A stretch of 23,150 nt of DNA from a virus, in the IMG/VR virus record IMGVR_UViG_3300045988_011306, positions 1-23,150 of that record; one strand, written 5' to 3'. The notes beneath the pieces were generated by a model. It was not told where the DNA came from, searched no databases, and saw nothing but the letters and a program-made list of their open reading frames with translations. The translations under genes were made by a program, and so were the position numbers. Positions within the stretch are counted from its first letter, which is position 1, and each line of letters starts with the position of its first letter. Shown piece after piece: positions 3,751 to 15,792 of the stretch.

Positions 3751-3782
3751 ATCTTTTTGTAATATTGATTTATCTCTTTTCT

Positions 3783-4529: not shown

Positions 4530-4760
4530 TTATCGAAATAACATTGCATACGACTTGCCTAAACAAGCTATTGAAATAAGTAGAATCACGATTGTTGTAA
4601 TTAGAATTACATTTACGCAATTTGTGATTCTTTTTTGATACCTTTTTTCTCTAATAAGTTCTTTTTCTTCTTTGCTTAAATGTATTCGTCTTGGATTAAA
4701 TGGATAAATACTTAACTCCATTTCATCCTCCTGTATTGCATTCATTCTTATATCTTGCAT
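4530..4760 (-). CDS. Small protein with a C-terminal transmembrane helix
   Basis: ATG with GGAGATAG upstream. VNVILITTIVILLISIACLG is hydrophobic. Confidence 0.45.
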   Translation of the reverse strand: MQDIRMNAIQEDEMELSIYPFNPRRIHLSKEEKELIREKRYQKRITNCVNVILITTIVILLISIACLGKSYAMLFR

Positions 4761-4763
4761 AAT

Positions 4764-5057
4764 CTATCTCCTAAAGCTTTTTTTAAATTCAGGACAACAT
4801 TTCAAAAATGTTTCCGTAGGAATTACCTTTTGATGAATATTCCTTTGCGTGAATGAATCTTCCCAATCAGTTCCTGTTTCTTTTTTGTAAGCTTCTTTTA
4901 CTTGCTTCATAATACTGTAGCAGTAGTTTTTCTGCGTTTGTGGCTTGTATCTGTCCAAGTCATAAAGTGCGATTATATCATCTTTATTAAGCAACGCTTT
5001 ATAATCAATAATCACTCTCATACACCTCCATTCTAGATTCACAAGTCTTGATTTCAT
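4764..5057 (-). CDS. Hypothetical protein. The true start is probably internal: ATG at 5021 or GTG at 5015, both downstream of GGAGG.
   Basis: The track ORF overlaps the upstream gene by 53 nt. GAATGGAGGTGTATGAGAGTG provides an SD for the internal starts. Confidence 0.45.
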   Translation of the reverse strand: MKSRLVNLEWRCMRVIIDYKALLNKDDIIALYDLDRYKPQTQKNYCYSIMKQVKEAYKKETGTDWEDSFTQRNIHQKVIPTETFLKCCPEFKKSFRR

Positions 5058-5184
5058 TTACTTCTTGTAAATCTCTTACGTTTAATCTGTTCGCAATTTC
5101 TTGTGCTTCTTCACTGTCATGTGCTTCAACCTCGAATGTAACATTTGCAACCACATCGCAAGTTACGAAATACGTTTTAGTCAT
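5005..5184 (-). CDS. Hypothetical small acidic protein
   Basis: ATG (MTKTYFV...) lies 6 nt after GAGGTG. Confidence 0.5.
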   Translation of the reverse strand: MTKTYFVTCDVVANVTFEVEAHDSEEAQEIANRLNVRDLQEVNEIKTCESRMEVYESDY

Positions 5185-5321
5185 GTTTCTCACCTCTTTT
5201 CTTCTTTTTTTGATTCGTTACTGATTCTAAAATTCTTTTTTCTATTGTTTCACCTCCATGACCTGTCATCATCAGTGCTAGTAGGTCGTCTCTAGCAGAT
5301 AAGCCTTTCGGCTTATTTCGA

Positions 5322-5588
5322 CTAATTTGTAGGAGTAATTCTTTCAACTTGATTCAATTTGAATAAGTAAGCTTTTGCTAAGAAGAAATTGTTCTCAACT
5401 TTTTCTTCTCCGTTTGTATCAGTGTATTTCTTTGCTTTAGGTTTCCATAACTTTGTACAAGTTACTGCGTGCTCACCTTCCTTAACTTTGAACCCCATTT
5501 CTTTCCATTTTTGGAAAGTGCGGAGAGGTTCGAACTCTCCCATTCCTAATGCTTTCTTTGTATTTTGGATAATTTCTTCGTTTGTCAT
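5322..5588 (-). CDS. Hypothetical protein, weakly ArdC-N-like (ssDNA-binding type motif)
   Basis: LRTFQKWKEMGFKVKEGEHA resembles the T-x-x-x-W-x-x-x-G-x-x-V-K-K-G-E motif of ArdC N-terminal domains. This comes from memory only. ATG has AGGAGG upstream. Confidence 0.35.
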   Translation of the reverse strand: MTNEEIIQNTKKALGMGEFEPLRTFQKWKEMGFKVKEGEHAVTCTKLWKPKAKKYTDTNGEEKVENNFFLAKAYLFKLNQVERITPTN

Positions 5589-5605
5589 TTCTTGTGTCCT
5601 CCTTA

Positions 5606-5851
5606 TTAATCCAAGTTTCCTCTTAGAAGTCTTAATGTATTTTTTGATTCATTAATAATTGTTTTCAATCTGTTTAATTCGAAACTGTAATATTGAAGCT
5701 TTTCAAATTTATTATCATTAACATCTAGGATTAATTTTTTCTTTAATTCTTCAATGTCGTTTTCTGCAAGCTTAATTTTTGTTTCATGTACCCAAATGAA
5801 ATTGTCTATTCCTTTTTCTTTTGGTTGTGTTGAGTAATCAATTTTGTTCAT
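5606..5851 (-). CDS. Hypothetical coiled-coil protein
   Basis: ATG with TGGAGGA upstream. Confidence 0.5.
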   Translation of the reverse strand: MNKIDYSTQPKEKGIDNFIWVHETKIKLAENDIEELKKKLILDVNDNKFEKLQYYSFELNRLKTIINESKNTLRLLRGNLD

Positions 5852-5855
5852 TTTC

Positions 5856-6080
5856 TTAATCCTCCAATTTTAAGATTCCTTCTAATTCATATTTGTATGA
5901 TTCATAAACTTTTAATTCTCTTCTAATTTGCTCTATTCTTTCACAAGTTACCTTTACATAACTTGTATCACCAATTTCTGCTCTTTCCTTCATTGATTCC
6001 ATTTCTTGATTCAATGTTCTTTCTAGACTATTTATTTGCCAATCTGTTCTAGCTAATAGTTTTTCAATTTCTTTCTTCAT
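5856..6080 (-). CDS. Hypothetical coiled-coil protein
   Basis: ATG with TGGAGGA upstream. Confidence 0.5.
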   Translation of the reverse strand: MKKEIEKLLARTDWQINSLERTLNQEMESMKERAEIGDTSYVKVTCERIEQIRRELKVYESYKYELEGILKLED

Positions 6081-6123
6081 TTCTTGTATCCTCCATTTAG
6101 TACTTATTTGTACCTTACAAGTA

Positions 6124-6151
6124 CATATAGTACTTTTAAATTAAATTGCAA
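6124..6151 (-). promoter_or_regulatory. Possible early promoter (TTGCAA-16-TATATG), followed by phased GTAC repeats
   Basis: TTGCAA at 6151..6146 and TATATG at 6129..6124, upstream of gene 5856..6080. Confidence 0.3.
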
Positions 6152-6182
6152 AGTGTTTTTTTATTCTAATTTACAAGTTTAC

Positions 6183-6353
6183 TTATTTCATTCTTGATAA
6201 CAATTCTTTTTTTACCATTTTCAATTCTGCTTCGTTTAGTTCTGTTGGATTTGTAATGCTTTTACGATATAACCCACTGTAAATGATTACTATCTCTTTA
6301 TTGCCAATTTTCTTAATATTTCTTTCAAAGTTTTTTATTTCTTGTTTTGTCAT
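6183..6353 (-). CDS. Hypothetical small protein (56 aa)
   Basis: ATG at 6353 lies 9 nt after AGGAGG. The leader is nearly identical to that of gene 6896..7111. Confidence 0.5.
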   Translation of the reverse strand: MTKQEIKNFERNIKKIGNKEIVIIYSGLYRKSITNPTELNEAELKMVKKELLSRMK

Positions 6354-6392
6354 TTCCTGTTTCCTCCTGTGCACCTTATTAATTTCATATAT

Positions 6393-6421
6393 AGTATAAC
6401 ATACACGTATGTACTTGTCAA
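6393..6421 (-). promoter_or_regulatory. SigA-type early promoter: TTGACA, 17-nt spacer, TATACT with a TG extension
   Basis: -35 at 6421..6416 and -10 at 6398..6393. The spacer contains ACATAC-GT-GTATGT. Confidence 0.7.
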
Positions 6422-6428
6422 TGCTTTT

Positions 6429-6459
6429 AAAGAAAACAGACTATTTTTTTTTAGTCTGT
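6429..6459 (-). terminator. Intrinsic terminator after the RHH gene
   Basis: Minus strand reads ACAGACTA-A8-TAGTCTGT followed by TTTTCTT. The 8-bp stem overlaps the RHH stop codon. Confidence 0.65.
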
Positions 6460-6623
6460 AAATCTTTTCGAATTAATTTTTTAATGTACCCCATTTTAGA
6501 ATCAACCTCATCCAATTTCTTTAGGATGTCTGCGTCCGTGTTGAAACTTAACCGAACGCAGATAGTCTTTGTGTTTTTTTTATTTGATTTATTATTTGCT
6601 CTTATCTTTGCTTTTGAAACCAC
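6441..6623 (-). CDS. Ribbon-helix-helix (Arc/CopG-like) DNA-binding protein
   Basis: TICVRLSFNTDADILKKLDEVDSKMGYIKKLIRKDL fits a strand-helix-helix pattern. GTG start lies 8 nt after GGAGG. Confidence 0.6.
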   Translation of the reverse strand: MVSKAKIRANNKSNKKNTKTICVRLSFNTDADILKKLDEVDSKMGYIKKLIRKDLQTKKK

Positions 6624-6636
6624 TTACAATTCCTCC

Positions 6637-6882
6637 TTATACAATTGTGATTTTATTTCTAAAAATATCGTTGTATCTGTTACTACTAGAATACCACTTA
6701 TCGTTGAACATATCATATTGTTTCACAATTAATGGATTCTTTTTTCCTGTAACGATATAAACGTTGTCCATATTACTTGGCATAGAATGAACATATTCGT
6801 CCATTCTATTTCTCAAGCTTGTTAAGGAGTTGCTTTTATCAACAACTTCTCCTTTATAAATTGCATAATACTTAAATGTCAT
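6637..6882 (-). CDS. Hypothetical small protein (81 aa)
   Basis: ATG at 6882 (MTFKYYAIYKG) lies 6 nt after GGAGGAG. Confidence 0.5.
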   Translation of the reverse strand: MTFKYYAIYKGEVVDKSNSLTSLRNRMDEYVHSMPSNMDNVYIVTGKKNPLIVKQYDMFNDKWYSSSNRYNDIFRNKITIV

Positions 6883-6895
6883 TTCTAGCTCCTCC

Positions 6896-7111
6896 TTATT
6901 TCTTTGCCTTTCCAAACAACCCTCTATCTTCTAAGCTATTAATCAATATTAATTGTTTCAGTTCTTCAACTGTTCTGTCATCTCCACATAAACTTTTATC
7001 TTCATACAATAAGCGACTGTTTTCGTTTTTAGCATCCATTGCTTCTTTGTCACTCATCTTTTGTACTGCATAATAGAAATCTTTTACTTGCATTAATTTT
7101 TCGTTTGTCAT
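6896..7111 (-). CDS. Hypothetical small protein (71 aa)
   Basis: ATG at 7111 (MTNEKLMQV) lies 9 nt after AGGAGG. Confidence 0.5.
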   Translation of the reverse strand: MTNEKLMQVKDFYYAVQKMSDKEAMDAKNENSRLLYEDKSLCGDDRTVEELKQLILINSLEDRGLFGKAKK

Positions 7112-7148
7112 TTCTTGTTTCCTCCTGTGTACTTCTTTGTACATACAT

Positions 7149-7177
7149 AGTATAACATACACGTATATATATGTAAA
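7149..7177 (-). promoter_or_regulatory. SigA-type early promoter: TTTACA, 17-nt spacer, TATACT with a TG extension
   Basis: -35 at 7177..7172 and -10 at 7154..7149. It shares the 20-nt block ATACGTGTATGTTATACTAT with the promoter at 6393..6421. Confidence 0.7.
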
Positions 7178-7192
7178 GCACTTTTTTTTAGG

Positions 7193-7226
7193 AAAATAAA
7201 AAGTAGCCCTGCATAAACAGAGCTAC
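7193..7226 (-). terminator. Intrinsic terminator (second of two after the lysis genes)
   Basis: Minus strand reads GTAGCTCTG-TTTATG-CAGGGCTAC (9 bp with one G-U pair), followed by TTTTTATTTT. Confidence 0.65.
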
Positions 7227-7280
7227 CACATATTAACATCAACATGAATATTAACCTAAAAACCATATATATTATAGCAC

Positions 7281-7313
7281 AAAAAAATAGCCTATGAACT
7301 TAATCATAGGCTA
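7281..7313 (-). terminator. Intrinsic terminator, potentially bidirectional
   Basis: Perfect 10-bp stem TAGCCTATGA / TCATAGGCTA with a 6-nt loop, flanked by an A7 run on one side and an A/T run on the other. Confidence 0.75.
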
Positions 7314-7340
7314 AAATATAAAAAAAATAGTTGAAGGATT

Positions 7341-7424
7341 TGTGTCATAATTTCAGATTTTGACACTTTTTATGAAATTTAATTGTAATTTTTGCACAAA
7401 ATGTGCAATTTTGACACTTTTATG
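7341..7424. repeat. Non-coding repeat cluster between the endolysin stop and its terminator
   Basis: Direct repeats attttgacac-ttttt-atg (7357..7374) and attttgacac-tttt-atg (7408..7424). There is also an inverted GTGTCA copy (7343..7348) and the palindrome TTGCACA-AAA-TGTGCAA (7392..7408). Confidence 0.8.
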
Positions 7425-7440
7425 TGCCATTTCTCTTATT

Positions 7441-8205
7441 TTAAGCTACTTCAATTAATGGGCCACATTTTACCCATACCCCACCAATTTTAGCAAGGTT
7501 CTTTTGTGCGTTGACTTCATCAACACGAATTCTAGTTACGTAGACAACTGCATTTGTTGTATGTAGCACATTGTCATTGTATCCATCAGAATAGCGAACT
7601 TTATCCACTAGACGAATTGGAAACCAACCACCTAATTGTGCAAGGTATGCACATAAATCACCATTGATTTGTTTAAGCCCTTCATCTCCAATTTTCATTT
7701 GGACTGATGTCACATAGCTTCCTGCGTGCAAGATTTGGTCAATCGCTTCTGCGTGTTGTGGAATACTTGGCTTTGTAGCTCCTGTATTTGCAAAACATTT
7801 AGGTCTAAATGCAGTATCGAATGTAGCAAAATAAGGTAATTTAATTAAATTGAATGCTCCGCCTTTTCCACCTTGATTTTGGCCCAAGAACCATCCTTGC
7901 TTTCCGTCAATATCAGAATCAAAGATTGCGATATGACTGTATGGCGTAACTCCTGCTACTTCTTTAAAGACTGCGATATCTCCTGCTTGCATAATTGAGA
8001 CCTCATTGCAGTAGCTTAAAATTCCATTTGTTTTTCGATTGTTCCAAATATCCTTAACGTAGCCACTTGTCGTACAATGGATAGCTTTATAGCCTAAATC
8101 AATCATGTACTTTGCGAATCCGTCCCAACACTGCGCACCATAGTATCCGTCAATGTCGAATGCTTTGCCTAATACGGCTTTTTTAAAACTTTGATAATCT
8201 ATCAA
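7441..8205 (-). CDS. Endolysin: N-terminal CHAP domain plus a C-terminal SH3-like wall-binding domain
   Basis: GYYGAQCWDGF (catalytic Cys) and PYSHIAIF (His) are CHAP signatures. The start is TTG at 8205 (4 nt after GGAGG) or ATA at 8202 (7 nt after). Confidence 0.8.
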   Translation of the reverse strand: MIDYQSFKKAVLGKAFDIDGYYGAQCWDGFAKYMIDLGYKAIHCTTSGYVKDIWNNRKTNGILSYCNEVSIMQAGDIAVFKEVAGVTPYSHIAIFDSDIDGKQGWFLGQNQGGKGGAFNLIKLPYFATFDTAFRPKCFANTGATKPSIPQHAEAIDQILHAGSYVTSVQMKIGDEGLKQINGDLCAYLAQLGGWFPIRLVDKVRYSDGYNDNVLHTTNAVVYVTRIRVDEVNAQKNLAKIGGVWVKCGPLIEVA

Positions 8206-8225
8206 GAATCCTCCTTTCTGTACCA

Positions 8226-8255
8226 ATTATAGCACATAAAGGAGGTTTCTATCAC
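8226..8255 (-). promoter_or_regulatory. Extended -10 promoter directly upstream of the endolysin
   Basis: Minus strand reads GTGATA, an 18-nt spacer that ends in TGC, then TATAAT. The extended -10 TGCTATAAT lies at 8234..8226, followed by AAAGGAGG. Confidence 0.5.
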
Positions 8256-8689
8256 TGATATACTGAGAACATTTCTCTTAATTTATCTCTGACCATTTCT
8301 CTTTCTTCTTGAAAGTCGCTAGATGATTTCATTTCTTCCAAAATTCCATACATGGCATTCAGAAAAGATTCTAACTCACGAATAGAAGTTCGCTTATCTA
8401 TTTCATTGTTATCTTTTCGATATTCTTTTTTTGCTTCTATATATCTTCTGAAATGGCTATTCATCAATGCGATATTATCATCAATTTCTGTTCCTTCAAT
8501 ATTTGTATCATTTGTTCTTAATGAATTTATAGCCATTCTTCCATCACTCATAGCTAATATCGTATCAATATCTTTGATGTTGTCTAATGCTTGGCTCATG
8601 ACTCTAAAGTCTAAATCATTATATCCTTTTTCTAGTCCTCTCATTGCTTCGGTTAAGAGGTCTAGATTCCTTTTTCTAACCTCTTGCAT
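8252..8689 (-). CDS. Hypothetical all-helical acidic protein (island gene F)
   Basis: ATG follows AGGTG. No signal peptide or recognisable motif. Confidence 0.5.
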   Translation of the reverse strand: MQEVRKRNLDLLTEAMRGLEKGYNDLDFRVMSQALDNIKDIDTILAMSDGRMAINSLRTNDTNIEGTEIDDNIALMNSHFRRYIEAKKEYRKDNNEIDKRTSIRELESFLNAMYGILEEMKSSSDFQEEREMVRDKLREMFSVYQ

Positions 8690-8696
8690 GATACAC

Positions 8697-9116
8697 CTAC
8701 GCTAATTTCTTAATGATGATATTTGCGTTCTGAACAGATAAATCTAAGCCACTGTTATTTCCTAAAGTAATTGTGTAAGAAGCTCCACAAGGTACTTGAA
8801 TCAATGTTGCTCCACTAACATTTCCGTATGCACTTGCAGTAGCTACATTATATAGAGATTCTGTTCCTCCTACTGCTTCTCCATTCTGTTCTAATTCTAA
8901 AGAAGCAACTCCTACTGTTGTGCTTGTGATGTCTGCCGTATATTCTACCTCATAGATTCCTTGCTTAGTCAATGTAAATAGTCCACTTCCTACATCATGA
9001 GCAAGCCAACCTTTACAAGCACATTGACATGATTTCGTTCTTACTCTATCCGTTGGAAATAAAACATTTTGTCCGTTTACTACTGTCTGAATTGCCGTTG
9101 CTATACTATTAATCAT
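8697..9116 (-). CDS. Stand-alone BclA C-terminal-domain-like (C1q/TNF-like jelly-roll) protein (island gene E)
   Basis: It aligns by eye along its length with the B. anthracis BclA C-terminal domain: NVLFPTD... / VPFNTV..., GLFTLTKQGIYEVEY / TFVISETGFYKITV, LELEQNGEAVGGT / LTIQVNGVPVPGT, and the terminal ANIIIKKLA / ASIIIEKVA. There are no collagen repeats. ATG has AGGAGG upstream. Confidence 0.65.
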   Translation of the reverse strand: MINSIATAIQTVVNGQNVLFPTDRVRTKSCQCACKGWLAHDVGSGLFTLTKQGIYEVEYTADITSTTVGVASLELEQNGEAVGGTESLYNVATASAYGNVSGATLIQVPCGASYTITLGNNSGLDLSVQNANIIIKKLA

Positions 9117-9132
9117 TTTCTTTTCCTCCTAT

Positions 9133-9163
9133 ATAAAATAAATGGGTAGCCTTTCGACTACCC
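9133..9163 (-). terminator. Intrinsic terminator or attenuator between island genes D and E
   Basis: Minus strand reads GGGTAGTC-GAAA-GGCTACCC (8 bp with one G-U pair, GAAA tetraloop), followed by ATTTATTTTAT. Confidence 0.55.
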
Positions 9164-9198
9164 TATAATCCAAAGGCTATTGCCTAATCTCTTTCGAG

Positions 9199-9810
9199 CT
9201 AGATTTGGTTACATCCACAACCTGTCATATTGTATGCATAATAAGGTGAGCAAGTAAGATATGCAGGCTTTGGCGTTGGTTGCAATGTGTTAATGATATT
9301 TGCAGATTGGGCCTGTTGGCTCAATTGGAAGTTAGCAGTCATTAGTTCTCTATCTCTATCTGCCAATTTATCACGCAATTCTTGCATTGTGTTAGCATTA
9401 ATTAATGCTCTTGTTGCTTCTGCTTCTGAGTGGATTGCAGTTGTAATATCACACGTGTTCTTGAAGTTTTGTGCGTTTACGCCGTCAATCGCTCTTTGTG
9501 TCACGCAACAACATTCTTGATTCTGTTGACCTAGATTCTGCAAACCTAATTGTGTCGTGTATCGGCTCTCTAAAATGTCTCTTGAATTTTGGAAACCTTG
9601 GCTAGATACATTTTGATTTGTGTTGAATAAATCACGTTTAATAAATTCTTGATTCATTAATGTGTCATTTTGCATATTGCCATTGTTTCCCCAATTTCCA
9701 CCAAACAATAGGAATAAAAGGATAATCCAAATCCAATATCCACCACCGAATTCATTATTGTTTCTGTCTGCTAAATCGTACATTGGTTGAATACCATTCA
9801 TGCTTTCCAT
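9199..9810 (-). CDS. Single-pass membrane protein with a Q/N-rich, Cys-containing ectodomain (island gene D)
   Basis: ATG lies 8 nt after AAAGGAGG. It has a GGGYWIWIILLFLLFGGNWG membrane anchor, a CCC triplet, a coiled-coil-like segment and a C-terminal TGCGCNQI. Confidence 0.6.
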   Translation of the reverse strand: MESMNGIQPMYDLADRNNNEFGGGYWIWIILLFLLFGGNWGNNGNMQNDTLMNQEFIKRDLFNTNQNVSSQGFQNSRDILESRYTTQLGLQNLGQQNQECCCVTQRAIDGVNAQNFKNTCDITTAIHSEAEATRALINANTMQELRDKLADRDRELMTANFQLSQQAQSANIINTLQPTPKPAYLTCSPYYAYNMTGCGCNQI

Positions 9811-9834
9811 CTATATTTCCTCCTTTCAACGCAA

Positions 9835-10044
9835 TTAGCGTTTTAGCCCATACTGATAAGTCACATTTTCAAACTGTTGTTTCTGTTGTGGCGTAAGTTG
9901 CCCCATCATATTGTTAAGCAATTCTTGGGGATTCTGCCCACTCTGCATTAATTGTTGTACTTGATTAAATGCTTGTGGATTTCTTTGTTGTAACATACTC
10001 AACAACATCTGTTGAGGATTCATCATATTCATTAAAGGATTCAC
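9835..10044 (-). CDS. Small Q/M/N-rich protein with repeated NPQ motifs (island gene C)
   Basis: GTG start lies 8 nt after AAAGGAG and overlaps the upstream TGA (GTGA). Confidence 0.5.
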   Translation of the reverse strand: MNPLMNMMNPQQMLLSMLQQRNPQAFNQVQQLMQSGQNPQELLNNMMGQLTPQQKQQFENVTYQYGLKR

Positions 10045-10466
10045 TCTTTAAGCTCCTTTCTAGGCGTTTCTTTCTCTGCCCTTGTATTTATATTAGTTCC
10101 GTTTGTTAGACCTAATATCATGGATTCTAGCTTGTCTAAGCGTTGTTCTATGTTGTCTTTCTTCGGTTCTATTTCTTCTTGGAATCTGTATTTCTTGAAA
10201 CTTCCATCTAAAGACTTCATATAGAATACTGAATCATTTCTATCTAGCATAATACTAGGCAAACCATTCACTATCATATTCCTTGCTTCTTGTTCATTAT
10301 TGACCCATTTCCCGTTGAAATCATTTAATGACATATTAGGCGTGATTTGGTTGTTAATATTAATAGGTGGAATGTTTGCTAATTGTTGAATGTTTTGCAA
10401 TTGCGATTCAATCATCTGCTTTTGATTCAATAAATTATTAATTCTGTCATTGATTGGATTATACAT
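10041..10466 (-). CDS. Hypothetical Q/N-rich protein (island gene B, 141 aa)
   Basis: ATG at 10466 (MYNPINDRINNLL) lies 6 nt after GAGGTG. The longer track ORF begins at a TTG inside a TTGACA box. Confidence 0.55.
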   Translation of the reverse strand: MYNPINDRINNLLNQKQMIESQLQNIQQLANIPPININNQITPNMSLNDFNGKWVNNEQEARNMIVNGLPSIMLDRNDSVFYMKSLDGSFKKYRFQEEIEPKKDNIEQRLDKLESMILGLTNGTNINTRAEKETPRKELKE

Positions 10467-10544
10467 TTTGCTCACCTCTTTACACTCATAATTATATTCA
10501 TGAGCAATCTCAATTTGTTTCCACATTAATGTCAAATAAATGTC

Positions 10545-10570
10545 AAAAAAAAGAGGTATTTCAACCTCTT
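10545..10570 (-). terminator. Intrinsic terminator inside the lysis cassette, overlapping the stop codon of the sigma-r4-like gene
   Basis: Minus strand reads AAGAGGT-TGAAAT-ACCTCTT, running into a T8 tract. Confidence 0.7.
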
Positions 10571-10835
10571 AATTCTCATCTAGATACTTTTCTTTTTCAC
10601 TGCTTTTTCTTGGTGGTAGGATTGTGCTAAACTTCTCTACATTATCATACTTGCTCTTTAATCTTTTGATGATTCTATTAACGCTAGAAACACTCATGTT
10701 CAATTTGTCGGCTTGTTCTCTAACTGTCCATCCATATATTCTAGTTCTTAGAATCATTTCTTCCTCTTTTGTTAATAAAGCTAGGTTAATGAATTCTTCA
10801 AGAATAATCTTATTCCAAGGTACTTGATTCGTCAT
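10569..10835 (-). CDS. Small sigma-70 region-4-like / LuxR-type HTH regulator (island gene A)
   Basis: LTKEEEMILRTRIYGWTVREQADKLNMSVSSVNRIIKRLKSKY fits the region 4.2 HTH pattern. Its ATG lies 26 nt inside the 3' end of the holin gene. Confidence 0.55.
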   Translation of the reverse strand: MTNQVPWNKIILEEFINLALLTKEEEMILRTRIYGWTVREQADKLNMSVSSVNRIIKRLKSKYDNVEKFSTILPPRKSSEKEKYLDEN

Positions 10836-11316
10836 TGTCTTGCTCTTCGTTAATGAGTTTATCTGCTACTTCTAATCCTTTAGTTAATACGTTAGGCACG
10901 TTATATCCACATTGTACAAGGTTCTCAATAATGCTACGCACTTCATTAATGCATAAAGAAGCTAACACAAACCAACCCAATAATGTTGTTACATGGAAAT
11001 CAACTCCTAACATTTCTCCAATTTCTACCAAGAATGCACTGAATGTGAACGCAACTACAATCATAATCCAATACCCTAGCTTTTTTAGGACCCCAATCCA
11101 ACCTTTATTGCTATTGATTTTGTGATTAATAGCCGACTTCATGCACCCTGTAATATAATCCACTACATTCATAAATAAGAAGAATGCGAATAAATACCAA
11201 TGCTCACCTAATACGTATGTTAATACGGCTACGGCTACGCCACCCATTGCATTAATCTTATCTAGAAAATACATACTTCTTGTTATTTGTTTAAATCCTC
11301 CATTGTTATTTTCTAT
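10810..11316 (-). CDS. Holin, phage_holin_4_1 / TcdE-type family
   Basis: VVDYITGCMKSAINHKINSNKGWIGVLKKLGY and CINEVRSIIENLVQCGYNVPNVL match the TcdE-like D..TG...A...S...G..KK and NE..SI.EN...G..VP signatures. Three hydrophobic helices. The proposed start is ATA at 11316, 8 nt after AAGGAG. The track's GTG at 11325 is part of the SD. Confidence 0.8.
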   Translation of the reverse strand: MENNNGGFKQITRSMYFLDKINAMGGVAVAVLTYVLGEHWYLFAFFLFMNVVDYITGCMKSAINHKINSNKGWIGVLKKLGYWIMIVVAFTFSAFLVEIGEMLGVDFHVTTLLGWFVLASLCINEVRSIIENLVQCGYNVPNVLTKGLEVADKLINEEQDNDESSTLE

Positions 11317-11328
11317 TAAATTCACTCC

Positions 11329-12342
11329 TTACATGATTTTTAAGTTATCAACCTCTAATTCTAGAGTTCTGTATCCACTCTTAATGACTTCAAATATATT
11401 TCTAATTCTTGCCGTCATTACTAATCCAATATCTGCTACTATAACATCCACTTTATCGCCTAAATCAAAGTCAACCTTGTATTCGTATGAATCCGTATTC
11501 AATCCGAAATTCACATTTTCCTGAATTTGACAATCTGCTAGTTTTTCAATTCCTTTCTGAATGAGTACCTTCTTATATTCATCAAGCGTCATATTGTCGC
11601 CCATACGCTCAGAACGTGCGTCTACGAATAACTTTTTGATTCTTTCGTTCTTATCTATTCTAGCGTCATATTCTACGTAAATACGCTCTTCTGATTGTCC
11701 TTCACCACAAATGATAGCATAGTTCTTATATTTGCTTGAATCAATCATAACGTCAGGTTCTTCAATATTTCCAAACTCTGTTGAAAAGGTAACAAAGTTG
11801 TTTCCATCTGTATTATTCTGAGTTAAATCACGACCACGATACAAAACAAATGTGAATGTACTTGACACATAGTCATATTCTATACGGAACGACAATTCTA
11901 ACGGATACAATAATTCATAAAGTTTTGTATCAAGGTTTGCTCCTGTTTCTTGGAAGTCTACTCTATCGGTAATGGATTCATCATATCTATACCCCATTTC
12001 CCATGAGCAATACTTGTCTAATAGCTTTTTTACAACATCGACAATTTTTCCACTGCTTGAGAATGTAGGATAAATACAATCATCTGCTAGAATCTTTTCA
12101 AAGAAAGAGCCTTTTAGCAACATTTGTTTCGTGTTGTTTGAAACCGAATAATGTGGTATTTCTACGATTCCTAACTCTTTATCCTCAGTTGAATAAATAT
12201 ATTTTATGTCGCTTGAATACTGCCCTATATCAATATAAATTTCAAAGTCTCCTGTTTCATAATATCGCCTATTCCACTGCACGTTATAAGGTGCTAGATG
12301 TGTAACGATATTGAAATCTTTATCTAATCCAAAGTAAGACAT
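11329..12342 (-). CDS. Siphovirus Gp37-like tail (baseplate/Tal-position) protein
   Basis: It lies directly after Dit. The N-terminus NIVTHLAPYNVQWNRRYYETGDFEIYI ... ELGIVE resembles the ReqiPepy6 Gp37-like family (from memory). Confidence 0.55.
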   Translation of the reverse strand: MSYFGLDKDFNIVTHLAPYNVQWNRRYYETGDFEIYIDIGQYSSDIKYIYSTEDKELGIVEIPHYSVSNNTKQMLLKGSFFEKILADDCIYPTFSSSGKIVDVVKKLLDKYCSWEMGYRYDESITDRVDFQETGANLDTKLYELLYPLELSFRIEYDYVSSTFTFVLYRGRDLTQNNTDGNNFVTFSTEFGNIEEPDVMIDSSKYKNYAIICGEGQSEERIYVEYDARIDKNERIKKLFVDARSERMGDNMTLDEYKKVLIQKGIEKLADCQIQENVNFGLNTDSYEYKVDFDLGDKVDVIVADIGLVMTARIRNIFEVIKSGYRTLELEVDNLKIM

Positions 12343-12343: not shown

Positions 12344-13216
12344 CTATAAACCTAAATACCTTTCATTGTAATAAACCGTACAAGCTAGGTTCGTATCTCC
12401 ATTGTCTGCCGTATACCCTATGATATTTTCTCCTAGTTGAATCGTCATATCGTTGAATGATGATGTTCTGTCAACCTTTCCGATACAATTTACACCATTC
12501 TTTTTAATCGAAATAGGCTCAGAAACTAAATCAATTTCTAACACATCACCATTGTGTAGCGTATCTAATACACGAATATATTTATCTTTGTTGAATAATT
12601 CCGGATTTGTAACATCTCCGAACGCTTCAATAACGGCTCTACAGTATGTTTCTGTATCACCTTGATTATCGATATAGATTTCTCTAGCAAATGTAAATGT
12701 TCCAAAGTTCACGCCTGTTTCAGGTATTTCAAAGTTGAACGCTAAACCTTCTCCAATTTCTGCGATATTCCTTGCGAAATCATCATATGAAAGCAATAAA
12801 GGTTGTGTGCATAGAATCGTAAAGTTAAGCTCTAAATCCTTGTAGATGTTAGCAGTAGGCAAGCTATACGCATATAAACGACCTCTGCAATATTTCTTTT
12901 CTCCCATGTACTCAACTATCACATCAAATATATGAGAATATTGGAAGAAGCGTCGTAGCTTCTCCCTTTCTTCTCTTTTTTCTTCTAGCGAGCCTTTAAA
13001 GGTAGCTTTCACGCTTCTTTCTTTCGTTGGAATACGTGAGCCGATTAATCTAGCACCATTTCCGAATGCGTTGTCTTGAGCCGTATATGAAGGTGCTACA
13101 TAATCAAATCCATCTAATCCACTACTTGAAGGAATCCTCCATCTTTTTTGGTTGTCGATTTCAAATTCTTTGCCATCATCCCTACGGACAATAACTCTTA
13201 CTTTATTGATATCTAT
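12344..13216 (-). CDS. Distal tail protein (Dit, phage tail family)
   Basis: It lies directly after the tape measure gene. The frame stays open for 67 codons upstream of the track's GTG with no canonical start. ATA at 13216 lies 9 nt after GGAGG and overlaps the TMP stop as ATAG. Confidence 0.7.
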   Translation of the reverse strand: MDINKVRVIVRRDDGKEFEIDNQKRWRIPSSSGLDGFDYVAPSYTAQDNAFGNGARLIGSRIPTKERSVKATFKGSLEEKREEREKLRRFFQYSHIFDVIVEYMGEKKYCRGRLYAYSLPTANIYKDLELNFTILCTQPLLLSYDDFARNIAEIGEGLAFNFEIPETGVNFGTFTFAREIYIDNQGDTETYCRAVIEAFGDVTNPELFNKDKYIRVLDTLHNGDVLEIDLVSEPISIKKNGVNCIGKVDRTSSFNDMTIQLGENIIGYTADNGDTNLACTVYYNERYLGL

Positions 13217-15792
13217 TGAATTACACCTCCATATCCATATCTTGCTTGCATACGTAACATTCTAGCGATTTCATCAGGACTTTGAGCTTTATTATAGAAG
13301 TTGATAGTCTGTCCGTTGTTATTCGTTGTTACGCTTGGTATGATTTGAGCCATATCTTTAGCAACGGCACGAATCCAAGCTTTATTTCTTTCTAATGGAA
13401 CGACTGCTTCTGCTCCGTTACCTTCTAGCAAACCGATTTGGCCACGTTTCAATACACCACCACGTTCTAGCTTTGGAATCTTTCCAATGTGTACACCGGG
13501 AATCTTATTGATGATTCCGATTGCGCCGTTAATACCTCCTATAACGCCATTTACAAAGCCTTTTACGCTTCCAACTAACGATTGTACTGCTCCTTCAATT
13601 CCACCAAATACACCACCTACAAAGTCTTTTAAACCGTTCCATGAGTTTTGTATTCCTTGTAGAACGTTTGAAATCTTTTCGCCTACTTTGCCCATGATAT
13701 CTTTAACTTTAGACCAAATACCGTTGAATACATCCGAAACGGTATCCTTAACATTATTGAAATATTTATTGATATTATCTATCACACCTTGAACCTTGTC
13801 TCTTACCTTGTTCATAGCGTCTTGTATCTTACTCCAAATGTTTCCTACTACATCCGAAACTGTCTTAAATACATTGCTTACGAATTCAATAATCGCAGTA
13901 ACTACTTCGCTAATCTTACTCCAAATATTTGTTGCTACTGTTAGGATAACTGACCAAATATTCGCTACGATTGTAGCTACGACTTGAACAATAGGCATGA
14001 TAAATCCTAGTATTGTTGAAATTGCAGTACCTACAATAGAAATTACTGTGCTAATAAATGATATAATACCACTTATAACACTTCCGACAACTTGAAGGAT
14101 AGATGTTATTACAGGAATCATTCCAACTACCGTTTGAATAATCATCTTAATAATTGCTAGAATCGGTGGGCCTACAACGCTAAGAATCTTTTGAGCTTGA
14201 TTCACAATATTTTGAATCACTTCAATAATCTTGCTTAATATATCCTTTGCAATAGGCTCAAGAGCAGTTTTCATCTGCTCAATCGCACCTTTTACCTTGT
14301 CAAAAGCAGGAGCTAACACATCTGAAACTTGGCTAACGATATTGGTTATACCGCTTGTATCAATACTTCCGAATACATTTGAAATGACATCACCAACTTT
14401 AGCGAATCCTTGTTGAATGCCTTGAATTGCTACTGTAATAAATCCAATGATACCGGAAAGAATAGGAATAATTGCTTCGCCTATTGGAGTAAATGAATCA
14501 AGAAATGTACGGCCTAATTCACTTAAAGCGTTCTTTAGACCACCATTTGCAATTTCTTTGACTTTATCCATTGCTCCTTCTACATCTTTATATTTATTTC
14601 CTACTGTCGTTAAGGACTGAATGAATCCTGCGTTGAAATCTTCTCCCATTGTACCGAAAGCCGTTGCCGATTTATTCAACTTTTCTTGCTCGTTTGTAGT
14701 GTTTGAAATATCTTCTACAATCGCATTCACAACATCTTTCTGAGTTGCTCTTCCCTCTTGCCAAGCTTTAAAGACATCTTGCGTCTTGGAACTGAAACTA
14801 TCTAAAGCTCCTTCAATCGTTCCATCAACTAACCTTGTGGTAACTTCGTTGATTGCGTCGTTTACTTTATCAAGGTTGTAAGCTCCACCATCTAAGCCAT
14901 TCTGCATTAATTGGAAATATTCATCTGCAGAATATCCTGCTTGTGCGAATTTACCGGAGTATTCTGAAATGTTGTCGCCTAATTCATCTGATTTATTCAA
15001 ACCGTTCTGAGCACCTGTTGCCATTAGGTCAAAAGCTTCTTGAGAAGTAATGCCGAACTGCTTCATCAACTGTTGAGCACCTCTTAATGTTTCGTTCTCG
15101 TCCATGCCGAATGCGTCTCTTAATGTCAATAAATCCTCGGTCACGTTCTTTAGGTCAACATCACTTATGCCTTGCATTTGTTGCTTGACACGGCCCATCA
15201 TGTCGGCTACATCTGCAATATCTTCACCGAAATTGTTTGACCAAACTTCACGAGCAATGTCTTTAAACTTGCTCATTTCTTTACTTGAAGCACCTGTTTG
15301 AGCTTGGAAATTAGCCATAGCGTCATCTAGCTCTGTAGCTTGATTTACACCTGTCTTAATCGCTAGTGCCATACCACCGATAGCTCCTGCTACGGCAGTA
15401 ACGCCTACAACACCCCCTATGCCTAATCCTGTTAGTGTATCAGTGATTGTAGTTGCTTCCGGACTAATATTCTGAATCTTATCTAATAAGCCATCAAATC
15501 CACCTTGAATTGAATCTAAGGCACTGCTACCAACCTTTTTAAATACATCAAACTTTGAACCTGTTTCTTGTGTTTCTGCTTGTGTATTCTTTTGCTCTTC
15601 GTTTAAATCCTTAAGTTTATCTTTAATCTTTGGTGGTGCTTTTGAACCGTCAGAGCCTAATTTGTCGATTGCTTTTGAAGTATCTTTAATTGCATTTGTA
15701 GCTTCACTTGATACGACCTTTACAGATTTAATACCATTCTCTAGACCGCTTGTATCTAGCTTTGTCTCAAACTTTAAAATTCCGTCTGATAT
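13213..15792 (-). CDS. Tail tape measure protein (about 859 aa)
   Basis: Long helical protein with hydrophobic central repeats and repeated ...NIWSKI / GIWSKV units. The frame is open for 140 codons upstream of the first ATG (SDGILKFETKLDTSGLENGIK...). ATA at 15792 lies 11 nt after GGAGG. Confidence 0.85.
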   Translation of the reverse strand: MSDGILKFETKLDTSGLENGIKSVKVVSSEATNAIKDTSKAIDKLGSDGSKAPPKIKDKLKDLNEEQKNTQAETQETGSKFDVFKKVGSSALDSIQGGFDGLLDKIQNISPEATTITDTLTGLGIGGVVGVTAVAGAIGGMALAIKTGVNQATELDDAMANFQAQTGASSKEMSKFKDIAREVWSNNFGEDIADVADMMGRVKQQMQGISDVDLKNVTEDLLTLRDAFGMDENETLRGAQQLMKQFGITSQEAFDLMATGAQNGLNKSDELGDNISEYSGKFAQAGYSADEYFQLMQNGLDGGAYNLDKVNDAINEVTTRLVDGTIEGALDSFSSKTQDVFKAWQEGRATQKDVVNAIVEDISNTTNEQEKLNKSATAFGTMGEDFNAGFIQSLTTVGNKYKDVEGAMDKVKEIANGGLKNALSELGRTFLDSFTPIGEAIIPILSGIIGFITVAIQGIQQGFAKVGDVISNVFGSIDTSGITNIVSQVSDVLAPAFDKVKGAIEQMKTALEPIAKDILSKIIEVIQNIVNQAQKILSVVGPPILAIIKMIIQTVVGMIPVITSILQVVGSVISGIISFISTVISIVGTAISTILGFIMPIVQVVATIVANIWSVILTVATNIWSKISEVVTAIIEFVSNVFKTVSDVVGNIWSKIQDAMNKVRDKVQGVIDNINKYFNNVKDTVSDVFNGIWSKVKDIMGKVGEKISNVLQGIQNSWNGLKDFVGGVFGGIEGAVQSLVGSVKGFVNGVIGGINGAIGIINKIPGVHIGKIPKLERGGVLKRGQIGLLEGNGAEAVVPLERNKAWIRAVAKDMAQIIPSVTTNNNGQTINFYNKAQSPDEIARMLRMQARYGYGGVIQ

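Follow-up and report, generated by a model that had tools for sequence, protein, structure and literature searches.

A conserved viral gene cassette with its own sigma-like regulator, found between a phage holin and endolysin

Why do six genes lie between the holin and the endolysin of this phage, and do they depend on the lysis genes that flank them? A preliminary description of the window (the whole stretch of 23,150 nucleotides that was analysed, from virus record IMGVR_UViG_3300045988_011306) had noted the unusual gap and proposed that the genes inside it, here called A to F, are cargo of an export or surface-remodelling device. The gap was confirmed: about 2.6 kb separate the holin stop from the lysin start, and A–F lie within it, on the minus strand like the holin and the endolysin.

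The locus and its genes

The genes of the locus are listed below in the order of transcription.

10810–11325, minus strand: holin of the TcdE/Hol44 type (Pfam Phage_holin_4_1, E = 1.4e-32; TIGR01593, E = 1.4e-20)
10569–10835, minus strand: gene A, 88 aa, sigma-70 region-4-type HTH protein, first gene of the cassette
10041–10466, minus strand: gene B, 141 aa
9835–10044, minus strand: gene C, 69 aa
9199–9810, minus strand: gene D, 203 aa, core protein
8697–9116, minus strand: gene E, 139 aa, jelly-roll of the TNF/C1q/BclA-C type
8252–8689, minus strand: gene F, 145 aa, acidic and helical, variable fifth position
7441–8205, minus strand: endolysin with a CHAP domain (PHROG endolysin families, E = 4e-16)

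The six open reading frames are real genes, because A–F are conserved in 24 close relatives (82–100% amino-acid identity) and B–F also in an otherwise unrelated phage lineage (33–84%). The endolysin starts at a TTG with a GGAGG ribosome-binding site (the list of open reading frames offers 8226 as an alternative), and its DNA is 65–70% identical to Streptococcus prophage lysins. The window element, possessing genes for head, tail and replication, is a complete phage.

Gene A overlaps the 3' end of the holin gene by 26 nt. The protein scored 26.6 bits against HTH_23 (cut-off 24.6) and 23.4 bits against Sigma70_r4_2, below the cut-off of 25.7, and it matches the NCBIfam family 'positive control sigma-like factor' over the region 4 part only. 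When compared with a profile of the HTH genes of 77–95 aa that lie directly upstream of B in 16 other lineages, A gave an hhalign probability of 96.8% (E = 2.8e-10); Sigma70_r4 matches were found in 12 upstream open reading frames. By these profile comparisons, the HTH gene directly upstream of B in other lineages is homologous to A.

Conservation and placement of the cassette

A–F are one copy of a conserved, widespread cassette with its own regulator, to which no function is assigned. Synteny mining recovered B–F in the same order in 32 loci with varying neighbours, and the arrangement of HTH gene, terminator, leader of ~100 nt, B, C, D, hairpin, E-type gene and fifth gene is conserved in more than 30 divergent loci. 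The coherence of A–F as a module with a small sigma-like regulator and its own punctuation, proposed from the window in the preliminary description, is borne out by this recurring order. For the opposite idea, that these are independently acquired, unrelated morons or spurious open reading frames, only the missing annotation speaks; the common gene order and intergenic architecture refute it and leave it a negligible probability.

Carriers include prophages and contigs binned to Erysipelotrichales, Negativicutes, Clostridia, Bacteroidales, Melainabacteria and Spirochaetes, as well as crAss-like Suoliviridae, C. perfringens phages and viruses assigned to Methanomassiliicoccales. Clostridium phages CPD1 and XP41-N3 and Bacteroides phage C3_41T2LP are carriers available in culture. 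The hosts of these viruses are monoderm, diderm or wall-less, and all live in anaerobic gut habitats. The B family occurs in 27 open reading frames of the 32 loci and the C family in 26; D had 5,014 matches at the 90% cluster level, and D alone accounts for 1,135 clusters at 50% identity. The suggestion that the cargo decorates spores or the exosporium fails, because the cassette is present in viruses of Bacteroidales, Negativicutes, Spirochaetes, Melainabacteria and Methanomassiliicoccales, and the carriers' hosts thus include non-sporulating clades with very different envelopes.

Placement between the two lysis genes occurs only in the window's phage lineage. Most lineages have the cassette downstream of holin and endolysin alike, usually at the prophage end or a late/early boundary, with host genes or early genes beyond it; the closest other lineage carries it upstream of an r1t-type holin and the CHAP lysin. 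The two lineages with the closest cassettes have no TMP, Dit, Tal or holin in common. Adjoining holins belong to at least five families (holin_4_1, r1t, Dp-1, LLH and the crAss 'pholin'), and linkage to the holin_4_1 family is confined to the window lineage and two other loci, such a holin being missing beside the cassette in other lineages. The window's holin ends the structural side of the late operon and is a lineage-specific neighbour outside the conserved cassette. The CHAP endolysin, 78–93% identical in lineages 1 and 2, accompanies the cassette in two lineages and was independently swapped in some relatives; a close relative, L014, carries a 551-aa CHAP+Amidase_2 lysin in its place, followed by an integrase and a repressor. 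In Bacteroides phage C3_41T2LP recombination genes, not lysis genes, precede the D set, and in crAss-like phages this set comes after the 'pholin' and a protein with a TM segment and a coiled coil that is annotated as LysB-like. Because the cassette usually lies outside the holin–lysin pair and the holin families vary, the 'sandwich' seen in the window is a lineage-specific mosaic junction.

These observations bear on the model of the preliminary description, in which B–F, lacking signal peptides, pass out of the unlysed cell by way of the TcdE-type holin and the endolysin, under a TcdR-like A, and remodel the cell or spore surface. The holin does belong to the TcdE/toxin-secretion family (TIGR01593 is entitled 'toxin secretion/phage lysis holin'), A is sigma-related, E carries an exosporium-type domain, and a check of the N-termini agrees that B, C, E and F have no signal peptide (B, C and F have no hydrophobic N-terminus, and E none with a charged n-region). 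However, the link to the holin–lysin pair is missing in relatives, A has no sigma region 2, and the supposed export hydrolase has close relatives in phages and the full length of a phage endolysin, and the element is itself a complete phage. Together with the wide range of envelope types and non-sporulating hosts, this makes the export model very improbable.

The same neighbourhoods could instead reflect an accessory role in lysis or egress, with a D-centred complex at the cytoplasmic membrane acting with holin and endolysin on lysis timing, envelope disruption or the shape of breakage. The cassette is repeatedly tied to lysis genes in three arrangements (after, before and between them), the cassette promoter has lysis genes downstream of it in the window and in the L006 lineage, the crAss-like D set follows lysis-annotated genes, and D has a hydrophobic segment. 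Against this, the holin families and many lysin types differ between carriers, whose hosts include wall-less archaea, D is far better conserved than its holin and lysin partners, and a TNF-like knob in lysis is without precedent. Moreover, C3_41T2LP and the archaeal virus have no recognisable lysis genes beside the cassette, and the end of a late operon is a standard site for any accessory gene. We regard such a role as rather unlikely. The conserved order across very distant viruses, with neighbours that change between lineages, was shown directly, and we tentatively read A–F as a self-contained cassette that does not depend on the flanking holin and endolysin as their cargo.

Promoters, boxes and hairpins

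The terminators after A and after D, the twin -35 boxes before B and the separate promoter of the endolysin, all named in the preliminary description, were found again, the boxes as TTGACA and the promoter as a promoter-like site, and the key elements are conserved.

10551–10570, minus strand: terminator-like hairpin with T-run directly after the A stop codon, conserved
10541–10546 and 10530–10535, minus strand: two TTGACA boxes 11 nt apart, unit TGAYATTWA, candidate operator for A
10491–10502, minus strand: -10-like element TGAATATAATTA of the inferred B promoter, by conservation
9144–9163, minus strand: GC hairpin with GAAA loop and interrupted T-run in the D–E gap, conserved
8226–8255, minus strand: promoter-like site before the endolysin, GTGATA-18-TATAAT with TGC directly upstream, by conservation
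7288–7313, minus strand: terminator-like hairpin closing the lysin unit, from the hairpin search

Four terminator-like hairpins were found against 1.6 expected. The stem of the post-A hairpin is invariant in 23 lineage-1 variants, and about 13 of the 18 lineages examined have a GC hairpin with a T-run after their A-like gene. The D–E gap is almost invariant within lineage 1, and nearly every lineage other than the crAss-like ones has a strong hairpin there; compensatory pairs were seen. The window's hairpin would partially terminate transcription or stabilise the mRNA 3' end.

Promoter-like matches as a class were not enriched (9 against 21 expected), so that support for the promoters comes from the conservation of their elements and not from match counts. 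TGAATATAATTA is invariant before B in 23 distinct lineage-1 sequences while flanking bases vary; it has no -35 element at 17 nt, and other lineages have a TATAAT-like box 16–32 nt before the B start. Before the lysin, TTTATGTGCTATAAT is likewise invariant in 19 lineage-1 variants amid varying flanks, and GTGCTATAAT of this site recurs at 7280–7271. The TTGACA boxes are kept as TGAYATTWA among lineage-1 variants, and lineage-specific direct repeats with a period of 10–11 nt occupy the same place in the leaders of L006, L046, L005, L112 and L115 (five copies in the last), and the leader of L096 has a pair of GTTTATCA 11 nt apart, read by eye; each of these repeats is individually weak and not significant against shuffled sequence.

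Since its start lies inside the holin gene, A is probably the last gene of the late operon. Judging from this anatomy, A would be translated at the end of that operon, transcription would then stop at the post-A hairpin, and A would bind the two boxes and turn on the -10-only promoter before B; A could equally repress this promoter. If the promoter depends on A, B–F would be made very late, only after A has built up, and the post-D hairpin would raise the amounts of B, C and D over those of E and F. The scheme is not universal, because in C3_41T2LP the cassette is placed elsewhere and in the crAss-like phages neither an A-like gene nor a D–E hairpin was seen.

Own promoter-like and terminator elements would also suit lysogenic conversion or superinfection exclusion, in which the cassette's own promoter would be active in lysogens or at an early stage of infection, and an anchored stalk and head on the membrane would block DNA entry by other viruses. 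The position beside lysin and integrase or at the prophage edge is that of a classic moron, a membrane-type anchor with an exchangeable head could serve it, and a block to entry at the cytoplasmic membrane would be of use whatever the host type, which fits the spread across phyla. Yet A is fused to the late operon and overlaps the holin, so that lysogens would keep a promoter that needs A switched off; a set of five conserved genes is large for exclusion, crAss-like phages carry the cassette within the late block, and no PADLOC model matched. Exclusion is thus a distinctly unlikely function. The very late, A-dependent operon remains our preferred scheme.

The proteins and a possible assembly

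B is rich in Asn (15.6%) and Gln (7.1%) and consists of an N-terminal helix, a disordered N/Q/P linker, a small alpha/beta domain and a C-terminal helix. Its AF2 model has a mean pLDDT of 71.6, with 80–92 in the domain at residues 52–94, and the fold had no significant match in the PDB; the protein falls into PHROG 21718, of unknown function. C, whose start overlaps the B stop by 4 nt, contains 24.6% Q, 13% N, 13% M and 7% P, and in the crAss-like, Bacteroides-phage and archaeal-virus versions D carries a fused C-like stretch at its N-terminus. D (PHROG 16490) is conserved in a CCC motif, a long helix (~113–175), PxxxPAYxxCSPY and a CxC motif; its cysteines are at 100–102, 120, 187 and 198/200, the last pair forming the C-terminal CxC, and its AF2 model is poor outside the helix (pLDDT 48.7). 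While the two Cys motifs stand as first described, the label of single-pass membrane protein is plausible but not secure: the hydrophobic segment at residues 25–36 has a core of only 12–13 residues (YWIWIILLFLLF), with Gly but no K/R at its flanks.

Profile and structure searches placed E and found nothing characterised for B, C, D and F. E scored 40.0 bits against Pfam BclA_C (cut-off 38; E = 4.4e-10), and a profile of its homologues matched the crystal structure of the F-BclA C-terminal domain (9H38, E = 3.3e-8), ExsF/BxpB and a TNF ligand, with Sf6/HS1 needle knobs at 0.03–0.08. By these matches E is a TNF/BclA-C-type knob. Unrelated small beta-proteins, E2 and E3, replace it in other lineages, and in L072 identity is 96% for E but only 74% for D, a difference that indicates recombination at the head gene. 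F (pI 4.9) belongs to a family found in 7 open reading frames, and DUF7841 holds the same fifth position in 15 loci; hhalign detected no relation between the two, and F had no relative in the PDB.

An exchangeable knob raises the question of whether the proteins belong to the virion, as a fibre, knob or decoration for gut binding or persistence, with D as stalk and E as the receptor- or mucus-binding tip. E resembles BclA-C tips and tail-needle knobs, is swapped with E2 and E3 and recombines between lineages as receptor-binding proteins do, and a hairpin after a 'major' gene recalls the stoichiometry control of structural operons. In addition, no receptor-binding or fibre gene can be recognised in the window phage beyond its 337-aa Tal, and crAss-like genome annotators have labelled D 'spike/viral fiber'. 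However, the cassette is insulated by a terminator and brings its own regulator, is usually found at the prophage end beyond the lysis genes, adjoining integrase or host genes, and goes with no single tail type (sipho-like and crAss-like carriers, some loci beside Baseplate_J). The hydrophobic segment of D is unusual among fibre proteins, and solved virion proteins share no similarity with the cassette. We consider a virion role unlikely.

We propose instead, with less than even confidence, that A activates a very late operon that builds an anchored, Cys-knotted stalk of C and D carrying an exchangeable head, E, which lysis releases or exposes. D would form a parallel coiled-coil stalk with Cys clusters on both sides of the helix, and its Gly-flanked N-terminal segment would anchor it in a membrane or a hydrophobic core, membrane anchoring being uncertain. 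C would be its Met/Gln-rich partner, fused to it in other phyla, E a trimeric head, and the fifth protein (F or DUF7841) an exchangeable accessory. As B, C, E and F have no signal peptides, the assembly would form within the cell as infection ends and would be exposed or released by ordinary holin–endolysin lysis. Given the monoderm, diderm and wall-less hosts from anaerobic gut habitats, a membrane or the gut environment is a likelier target for it than any particular cell wall. Candidate roles are protection of the progeny, blocking of entry and help with egress.

The preliminary description did not recognise this gene combination as a described system, and we likewise found no description of it in Pfam, PHROGs, NCBIfam, PADLOC, the PDB or the literature searched. 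A was likened to TcdR and UviA, but is a region-4-only protein, unlike sigma factors of that type. E shares with BclA the BclA-C-like C-terminal domain and, as the preliminary description had stated, differs from it in having no collagen repeats or stalk of its own.

Gene layout of the window

The window locus is a complete siphovirus genome, in which genes for capsid, tail, replication and recombination are all found. Identical proteins are present on human-gut metagenome contigs, and one 28.5-kb phage contig shows an identical gene order. Six genes (A–F) separate a holin from the endolysin and, together with their non-coding elements, form what we call the cassette: A (a sigma-region-4 HTH protein), a terminator, a leader, B, C, D, a hairpin, an E-type gene and a fifth gene. 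The relevant features are:

13213-15372, minus strand, tape-measure protein (TMP)
12344-13012, minus strand, Dit
11329-12342, minus strand, short Tal of 337 aa (Sipho_Gp37)
10810-11325, minus strand, holin of the TcdE family (Phage_holin_4_1, Pfam E 1.4e-32; TIGR01593, E 1.4e-20)
between holin and endolysin, minus strand, genes A to F
10570-10551, minus strand, hairpin and T-run directly after A
10546-10530, minus strand, two TTGACA boxes, 11 nt apart
9163-9144, minus strand, hairpin between D and E
8234-8226, minus strand, promoter-like site before the lysin (TGCTATAAT), with the 10-mer GTGCTATAAT (extended -10) at 8226-8235
7441-8205, minus strand, CHAP endolysin of 254 aa
7313-7288, minus strand, terminator-like hairpin after the lysin
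beyond the endolysin, minus strand, Sak single-strand annealing protein, RusA, NinB-like protein and HTH_36 protein

The punctuation claimed in the preliminary description was found, namely hairpins after A and D, twin TTGACA boxes and a promoter-like site before the lysin; a further terminator-like hairpin follows the lysin. Its accounts of the six proteins hold in general, except that the membrane segment of D and the score of E need qualifying. The holin directly follows the 337-aa Tal (11329-12342) at the end of the tail module, and no receptor-binding or tail-fibre gene is recognisable across the late region of the window lineage. An Rfam scan of 7000-11600 gave no family matches.

A second, identical copy of GTGCTATAAT lies at 7271-7280, just past the endolysin terminator and before a small ORF. 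As the 10-mer precedes both the lysin and the next unit, the lysin may, judging from these motifs, be driven by the promoter type of the next transcription unit rather than by the late operon. In the intergenic region after the lysin (7266-7441), AAAAGTGTCAAAAT occurs twice, at 7421-7408 and at 7370-7357, and there is a palindrome, TGCACATTTTGTGCA, at 7407-7393; these elements look like operators at the late/early boundary. The small ORF (7108-7266, 52 aa), directly after the lysin terminator and promoter-like site, has a hydrophobic N-terminal half (MVFRLIFMLMLICGSSVYAGLLFIFL...) and is partly conserved in relatives (51-74%). It could encode a small membrane protein (a second holin, an antiholin or an exclusion factor), or be no gene.

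Distribution and genomic setting of the cassette

D has 5,014 relatives at the 90% cluster level, and a profile search with it in a library of 1.84 billion proteins returned 1,135 clusters at 50% identity. Among 80 IMG/VR loci, 24 belong to the window's own phage lineage (lineage 1) and have TMP, Dit, Tal, holin, A–F and lysin in common, at 78-100% identity. The other 56 derive from ~45-kb phages that have none of TMP, Dit, Tal and holin in common with the window. Most of them keep the same cassette order, with identities of ~52% (B), ~63% (C), ~76% (D), ~84% (E) and ~33% (F); in a minority, B and C are at 42-47% and F is undetectable. Between lineage 1 and lineage 2 (otherwise unrelated phages with the closest cassette, typified by locus L006), the cassette and lysin are the sole shared genes. 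One of the 56 loci, L072, has an E 96% identical to that of the window and a D merely 74% identical, indicating recombination within the cassette.

Iterated HMMs were run over 32 diverse loci, comprising MAG prophages, annotated phages and crAss-like phages. The order B, C, D, small beta-protein, fifth gene was found throughout. The fourth position is taken by E (BclA-C-like), by E2, a beta-rich protein whose N-terminus has an NCC motif, or, in crAss and Bacteroides phages, by E3; the fifth is taken by the F family or DUF7841. No relation was detected by hhalign between E and E2, and F and DUF7841 were likewise unrelated by hhalign; on this sequence comparison, E/E2 and F/DUF7841 are non-homologous replacements at fixed positions. 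A gene for a 77-95-aa sigma-70 region-4 HTH protein lies immediately 5' of B in most lineages. Because the A protein of the window aligns to the profile of these genes (probability 96.8%, E 2.8e-10), we consider A part of the cassette. The preliminary description had proposed that these genes make up one coherent module, with punctuation of its own and a sigma-like regulator; the conservation across lineages of gene order, the A-type gene and the terminator, leader and hairpin bears this out.

Chimeric metagenome proteins (P0063, P0161, P0076, P0078) are of several types, with the N-terminal part of B joined to D just past its hydrophobic segment, B joined to the C-terminal half of E, or other N-termini joined to D. 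They look like deletion variants arising at short homologies (FNGKW, FGGNWG), which implies that the cassette is decaying in some genomes. As apparent deletion chimeras, the B::D and B::E fusions were dropped as evidence of interaction.

D is accompanied by the same partners in viruses of Firmicutes, Negativicutes, Bacteroidota, Melainabacteria and Spirochaetes and in records with methanogenic archaea as host, all from gut or other anaerobic sources. Siphoviruses and crAss-like phages carry the cassette, as does an archaeal-virus record. Hosts named in record titles include Solobacterium, Phascolarctobacterium, Megasphaera, Anaerofustis, Ruminococcus, Christensenellaceae, Bacteroidales, Gastranaerophilales, Spirochaetaceae and Enterousia. 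In the Solobacterium locus D is 77% identical to that of the window, an identity from which Solobacterium is probably near the window's host. Among annotated viruses, D is found in C. perfringens phages, in lemur and rodent gut viruses and in the cultured Bacteroides phage C3_41T2LP; the same collection gave zero D matches among its many Bacillus, Staphylococcus, Lactococcus and enterobacterial phages. Two viruses with Methanomassiliicoccales (archaea) in the host field also carry D (NC_092586.1, L116:5153-6034; BK063680.1), which implies that bacterial and archaeal gut viruses have exchanged the D gene. The neighbours of D at the L116 locus include an integrase, a DGR reverse transcriptase and a gene encoding an adhesin-like repeat protein. 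The proposal that the cassette proteins decorate the spore surface is at odds with this host range, on which a spore or exosporium role was rejected.

The genomic setting was examined in 26-28 diverse loci by scanning the ORFs that lie within 3.5 kb of the cassette in either direction. On the upstream side we found many endolysins (Amidase_2, Amidase_3, GH25, M15, ELLD, PG_binding_1), holins of several families (holin_4_1, Dp-1, LLH), tail or baseplate proteins and the HTH gene. Downstream lie either host housekeeping genes, marking a prophage edge, or early genes (ERF, Gp157, HNH); the only lysis genes on this side were two r1t holins and one lysozyme. The cassette is thus mostly downstream of holin and lysin, and the adjoining holins are r1t, Dp-1, LLH or 'pholin', or absent. 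L006 has tail fibres first, then two small ORFs, the A-like gene, B–F, an r1t holin and the CHAP lysin; fibre-size genes of this locus encode 526, 348 and 654 aa. L014:11699-17189, with cassette proteins 88-99% identical to those of the window, has a 551-aa CHAP+Amidase_2 lysin followed by an integrase and a CI-like repressor, whereas in the window (19-7441) the 254-aa CHAP lysin is followed by the Sak, RusA and NinB-like genes, with no integrase. The lysogeny module of the window phage is either elsewhere in the genome or lost in this variant.

Together, the flank scans and the L006 and L014 orders show that the holin-cassette-lysin arrangement is confined to the window lineage. Most simply, A–F and the lysin would have been joined as a block to a tail module ending in its own holin. 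The notion that the intervening genes are cargo linked to the holin/endolysin pair is not supported by this synteny, in which the cassette sits next to varied holins and usually outside the pair. Genes between a holin and an endolysin cannot safely be read as export cargo; here they mark a mosaic junction. Just 5' of the A-like gene of L006, a 77-aa protein (L006:6703-6936) combines a coiled coil with a transmembrane segment at its C-terminus. If this is a membrane protein associated with lysis, as it could be, the cassette would possibly lie within a split lysis region there too.

In crAss-like Suoliviridae, D is annotated as 'spike protein/glycoprotein' or 'viral fiber'. The idea that B–F supply a missing tail-fibre or receptor-binding module arose because the window is without such a gene; it is unlikely, as the cassette also occurs in phages with large fibre genes, and the location past the lysis genes disfavours it further. 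More broadly, we regard a virion fibre or decoration as a rather improbable function of these proteins.

Regulatory elements and proteins of the cassette

Immediately 3' of the A-like gene, a GC-rich hairpin with a T-run is present in ~13 of 18 lineages examined. Past this terminator lies a leader of 80-140 nt, with a TATAAT-like box 16-32 nt ahead of the ribosome-binding site of B. Across 23 distinct window-lineage sequences the terminator stem, AAACAAA and TGAATATAATTA are invariant, and the twin boxes are conserved as TGAYATTWA with a spacing of 11 nt. Direct repeats with a 10-11-nt period occupy the equivalent leader site in L006 (GAGTATTA, two copies), L046, L005, L112 and L115 (TTTCCAAAA, five copies); in L096, two copies of GTTTATCA were read by eye. 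The leader repeats of each lineage are weak singly when compared with shuffled sequence. The cassette's terminator-like hairpins are thus present and conserved, and we infer the B promoter from the invariant -10 box and the upstream repeats.

Outside the crAss-like lineages, nearly all have a strong hairpin in the gap after D, and a T-run often accompanies it. In the window the D-E spacer (9117-9198) is near-invariant among 12 lineage-1 sequences, and it has AATCTAG-hairpin-GATTAGGCAATxGCCTTTGGATT and a GAAA-loop terminator in common with L006:8625-8711, where D is only 76% identical. The first spacer hairpin changes from CTC/GAG to CAC/GTG between the lineages, a compensatory change. The spacer may be a structured RNA element, for example an attenuator or a processing site.

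A is an 88-aa protein that scores above the HTH_23 cut-off and just below that of Sigma70_r4_2 (23.4 against 25.7). Within its orthologous group, 12 members match Sigma70_r4 and r4_2 (best E 6.9e-10), and A matches the region 4 part only of sigma models (model positions 103-160 of 170). Its top NCBIfam match is 'positive control sigma-like factor'. Since the start of A lies inside the holin gene, we read A as the final product of the late operon. These features suggest a scheme in which A would be made last from the late operon, with transcription then ending at the hairpin after A. A would in turn switch on the B promoter, and the hairpin past D would keep the output of B, C and D above that of E and F.

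The hydrophobic core of D has only 12 residues, with Gly on both sides and without adjacent positive charges. Family-wide, D keeps this hydrophobic segment between glycines. RYTTQLGLQ...CCC, present once or twice, NTC, AIHxEGExTRALI, a long helix, LxPxPxPAYxxCSPY and a C-terminal GCGC are likewise family-wide. The AF2 model (pLDDT 48.7) is unusable for a fold search and places the helix at 113-175. Cys clusters flanking the long helix suggest that D could be a covalently knotted coiled-coil oligomer. In three versions, crAss-like (L092:5506-6441), Bacteroides-phage (L117:4731-5648) and archaeal-virus (L116:5153-6034), a Met-rich, C-like GxDPxxxAMM stretch is fused to the N-terminus of D; these loci are without B and without an A-like gene. 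That a C-like stretch is joined to D in the Bacteroidota and archaeal versions speaks for joint action of the two proteins.

The AF2 model of B (pLDDT 71.6) begins with a helix and a disordered linker, continues with a small beta-alpha-beta3 domain (pLDDT 80-92) and ends with another helix. Foldseek with this model gave only weak polo-box or SH2-like matches in the PDB (E >= 0.08), and in BFVD only uncharacterised gut-phage proteins. E is 139 aa long, the domain alone, and its BclA_C match (Pfam PF18573) is barely above threshold (40.0 bits, cut-off 38). The E profile matched the crystal structure of the F-BclA C-terminal domain in the PDB (9H38, E 3.3e-8), and the nearest solved relatives are this tip domain of Bacillus endospore appendages, the Sf6/HS1 needle knobs and ExsF/BxpB. 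By profile similarity, E is a TNF/C1q/BclA-C jelly roll. Neither a collagen-like GXX repeat nor, among NCBIfam models, an exosporium leader was found in E, and E, E2 and E3 had no DUF3992 or DUF4183 Pfam match at E <= 0.1. In DUF7841 (e.g. L096:9205-9657), several His, Asp and Asn columns are invariant (H56, D99, N105, D110, D132, D134), a pattern that suggests metal binding or catalysis.

The profile and structure searches that the preliminary description proposed for B–F were informative for E, with 9H38 and the knobs, but left B, D and F without a PDB relative. Searches of A–F and distant homologues against Pfam, PHROGs, NCBIfam and PADLOC assigned a function only to A (HTH) and E (BclA_C), plus the name DUF7841. 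No enzyme or toxin domain was found in B–F with Pfam, PHROGs and NCBIfam, and PADLOC had no match for B–F, DUF7841 or E2 and only weak HTH-type matches for A. PDB sequence-profile searches with B, D, E2, F and DUF7841 returned nothing; with Pfam, PHROGs, NCBIfam, PADLOC and the PDB taken together, B, C, D, F, E2 and DUF7841 have no characterised relative. Public annotations of these proteins read hypothetical, and a phage-genome DNA search with the region matched only the CHAP domain of the lysin. The cassette is likewise undescribed in the literature searched on BclA and prophage lysis, crAss spike and pholin, the DUFs, C. perfringens phage proteomics and a Bacteroides uniformis phage. As far as these libraries and papers show, we rate it as outside any described kind of system, and the earlier impression of an undescribed gene combination stands.

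Interpretation and relation to known systems

We tentatively favour, at somewhat less than even odds, a very late operon, activated by A, for a Cys-knotted stalk of C and D that has a hydrophobic anchor and carries an exchangeable head. The stalk-head assembly would form in the cytoplasm, and ordinary lysis would expose or release it; its target would be membranes or the gut environment, not a specific wall. A bolder version, which we consider a long shot, is a cross-domain, very late module peculiar to viruses of gut anaerobes. Its Cys-rich stalk-knob or matrix would be built in the dying cell, set free by lysis and disulfide-hardened once outside the reducing cytoplasm, and would protect or aggregate progeny virions or mask cell debris during gut passage and oxygen exposure. 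It would be the viral equivalent of the exosporium nap, of endospore appendages or of baculoviral very-late occlusion proteins.

The conservation of the cassette, the breadth of its carriers and its apparent self-regulation point to a common, uncharacterised step in the gut-virus life cycle, which looks tied to habitat or to membranes generally rather than to a particular host envelope. As cultured carriers exist (Clostridium phages CPD1 and XP41-N3; Bacteroides phage C3_41T2LP), the function is directly testable, and with this breadth the cassette is a worthwhile target.

The preliminary description had read B–F as signal-less cargo exported through the holin and endolysin. The window resembles PaLoc (TcdR/TcdE/TcdL) and UviA/UviB-BCN5 in having a TcdE-family holin, a sigma-related regulator, signal-less proteins and a nearby peptidoglycan hydrolase. 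However, A comprises region 4 only, unlike the full TcdR/UviA sigma factors (regions 2 and 4), the lysin is intact, the locus is a complete phage without toxin or bacteriocin genes, and in relatives the cassette is unlinked from the TcdE-type holin. Holin/endolysin-dependent export is therefore very unlikely. Type 10 secretion involves a non-phage chromosomal locus with a defined secreted enzyme or toxin, whereas here the genes lie in a siphovirus genome with integrase-bearing close relatives.

We judge an accessory role in lysis or egress unlikely though not negligible. Another comparison is with the late/lytic region of Bacillus PBSX, with the sigma-like positive control factor xpf and xepA-xhlA-xhlB-xlyA. 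Both regions have a small sigma-like late regulator, positive in PBSX and putatively so in the cassette, and non-enzymatic extra proteins inside the lysis region. In contrast to PBSX, B–F are without sequence similarity to XepA or XhlA, A has region 4 only and the cassette moves between unrelated phages.

Phage morons are accessory genes of late regions or prophage ends that form a transcription unit with a promoter and a terminator of their own. Like them, the cassette is mosaic in unrelated phages and typically lies past the lysis genes, near an integrase or prophage edge; its promoter-like and terminator-like elements would make it a putative autonomous unit as well. It differs from them in being an operon of six genes, in having a dedicated regulator and a fixed order, in crossing phyla and in occurring also in non-temperate crAss-like phages. 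Superinfection exclusion or lysogenic conversion by the cassette is, in our estimation, decidedly improbable.

For the favoured stalk-head reading, a structural parallel is offered by Bacillus endospore appendages, whose tip fibrils are of the F-BclA and L-BclA types and have connectors with Cys motifs. There, tips with BclA-C and connectors with a CC motif are put together, with no signal peptide involved, inside a cell that lyses afterwards (PMC12357932). E falls in the same TNF/C1q-like BclA-C family, and the CCC of D and the N-terminal NCC of the E2 substitutes recall the CC-motif connectors. The cassette proteins also are without signal peptides, and by analogy they would be assembled in the cytoplasm before lysis. 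Unlike BclA and the appendages, the cassette is without a collagen-like stalk, an exosporium leader or DUF3992 and DUF4183 fibre subunits, and it is phage-borne, in non-sporulating bacteria and an archaeal-virus context. The P22-like tail needles of Sf6 and HS1 combine a trimeric coiled coil with a TNF-like knob, as is proposed for the cassette, and the E profile has a weak match to these knobs (E 0.03-0.08). In the cassette, by contrast, two different polypeptides would make up stalk and knob, the putative stalk protein has a hydrophobic segment near its N-terminus and the genes lie outside the tail module.
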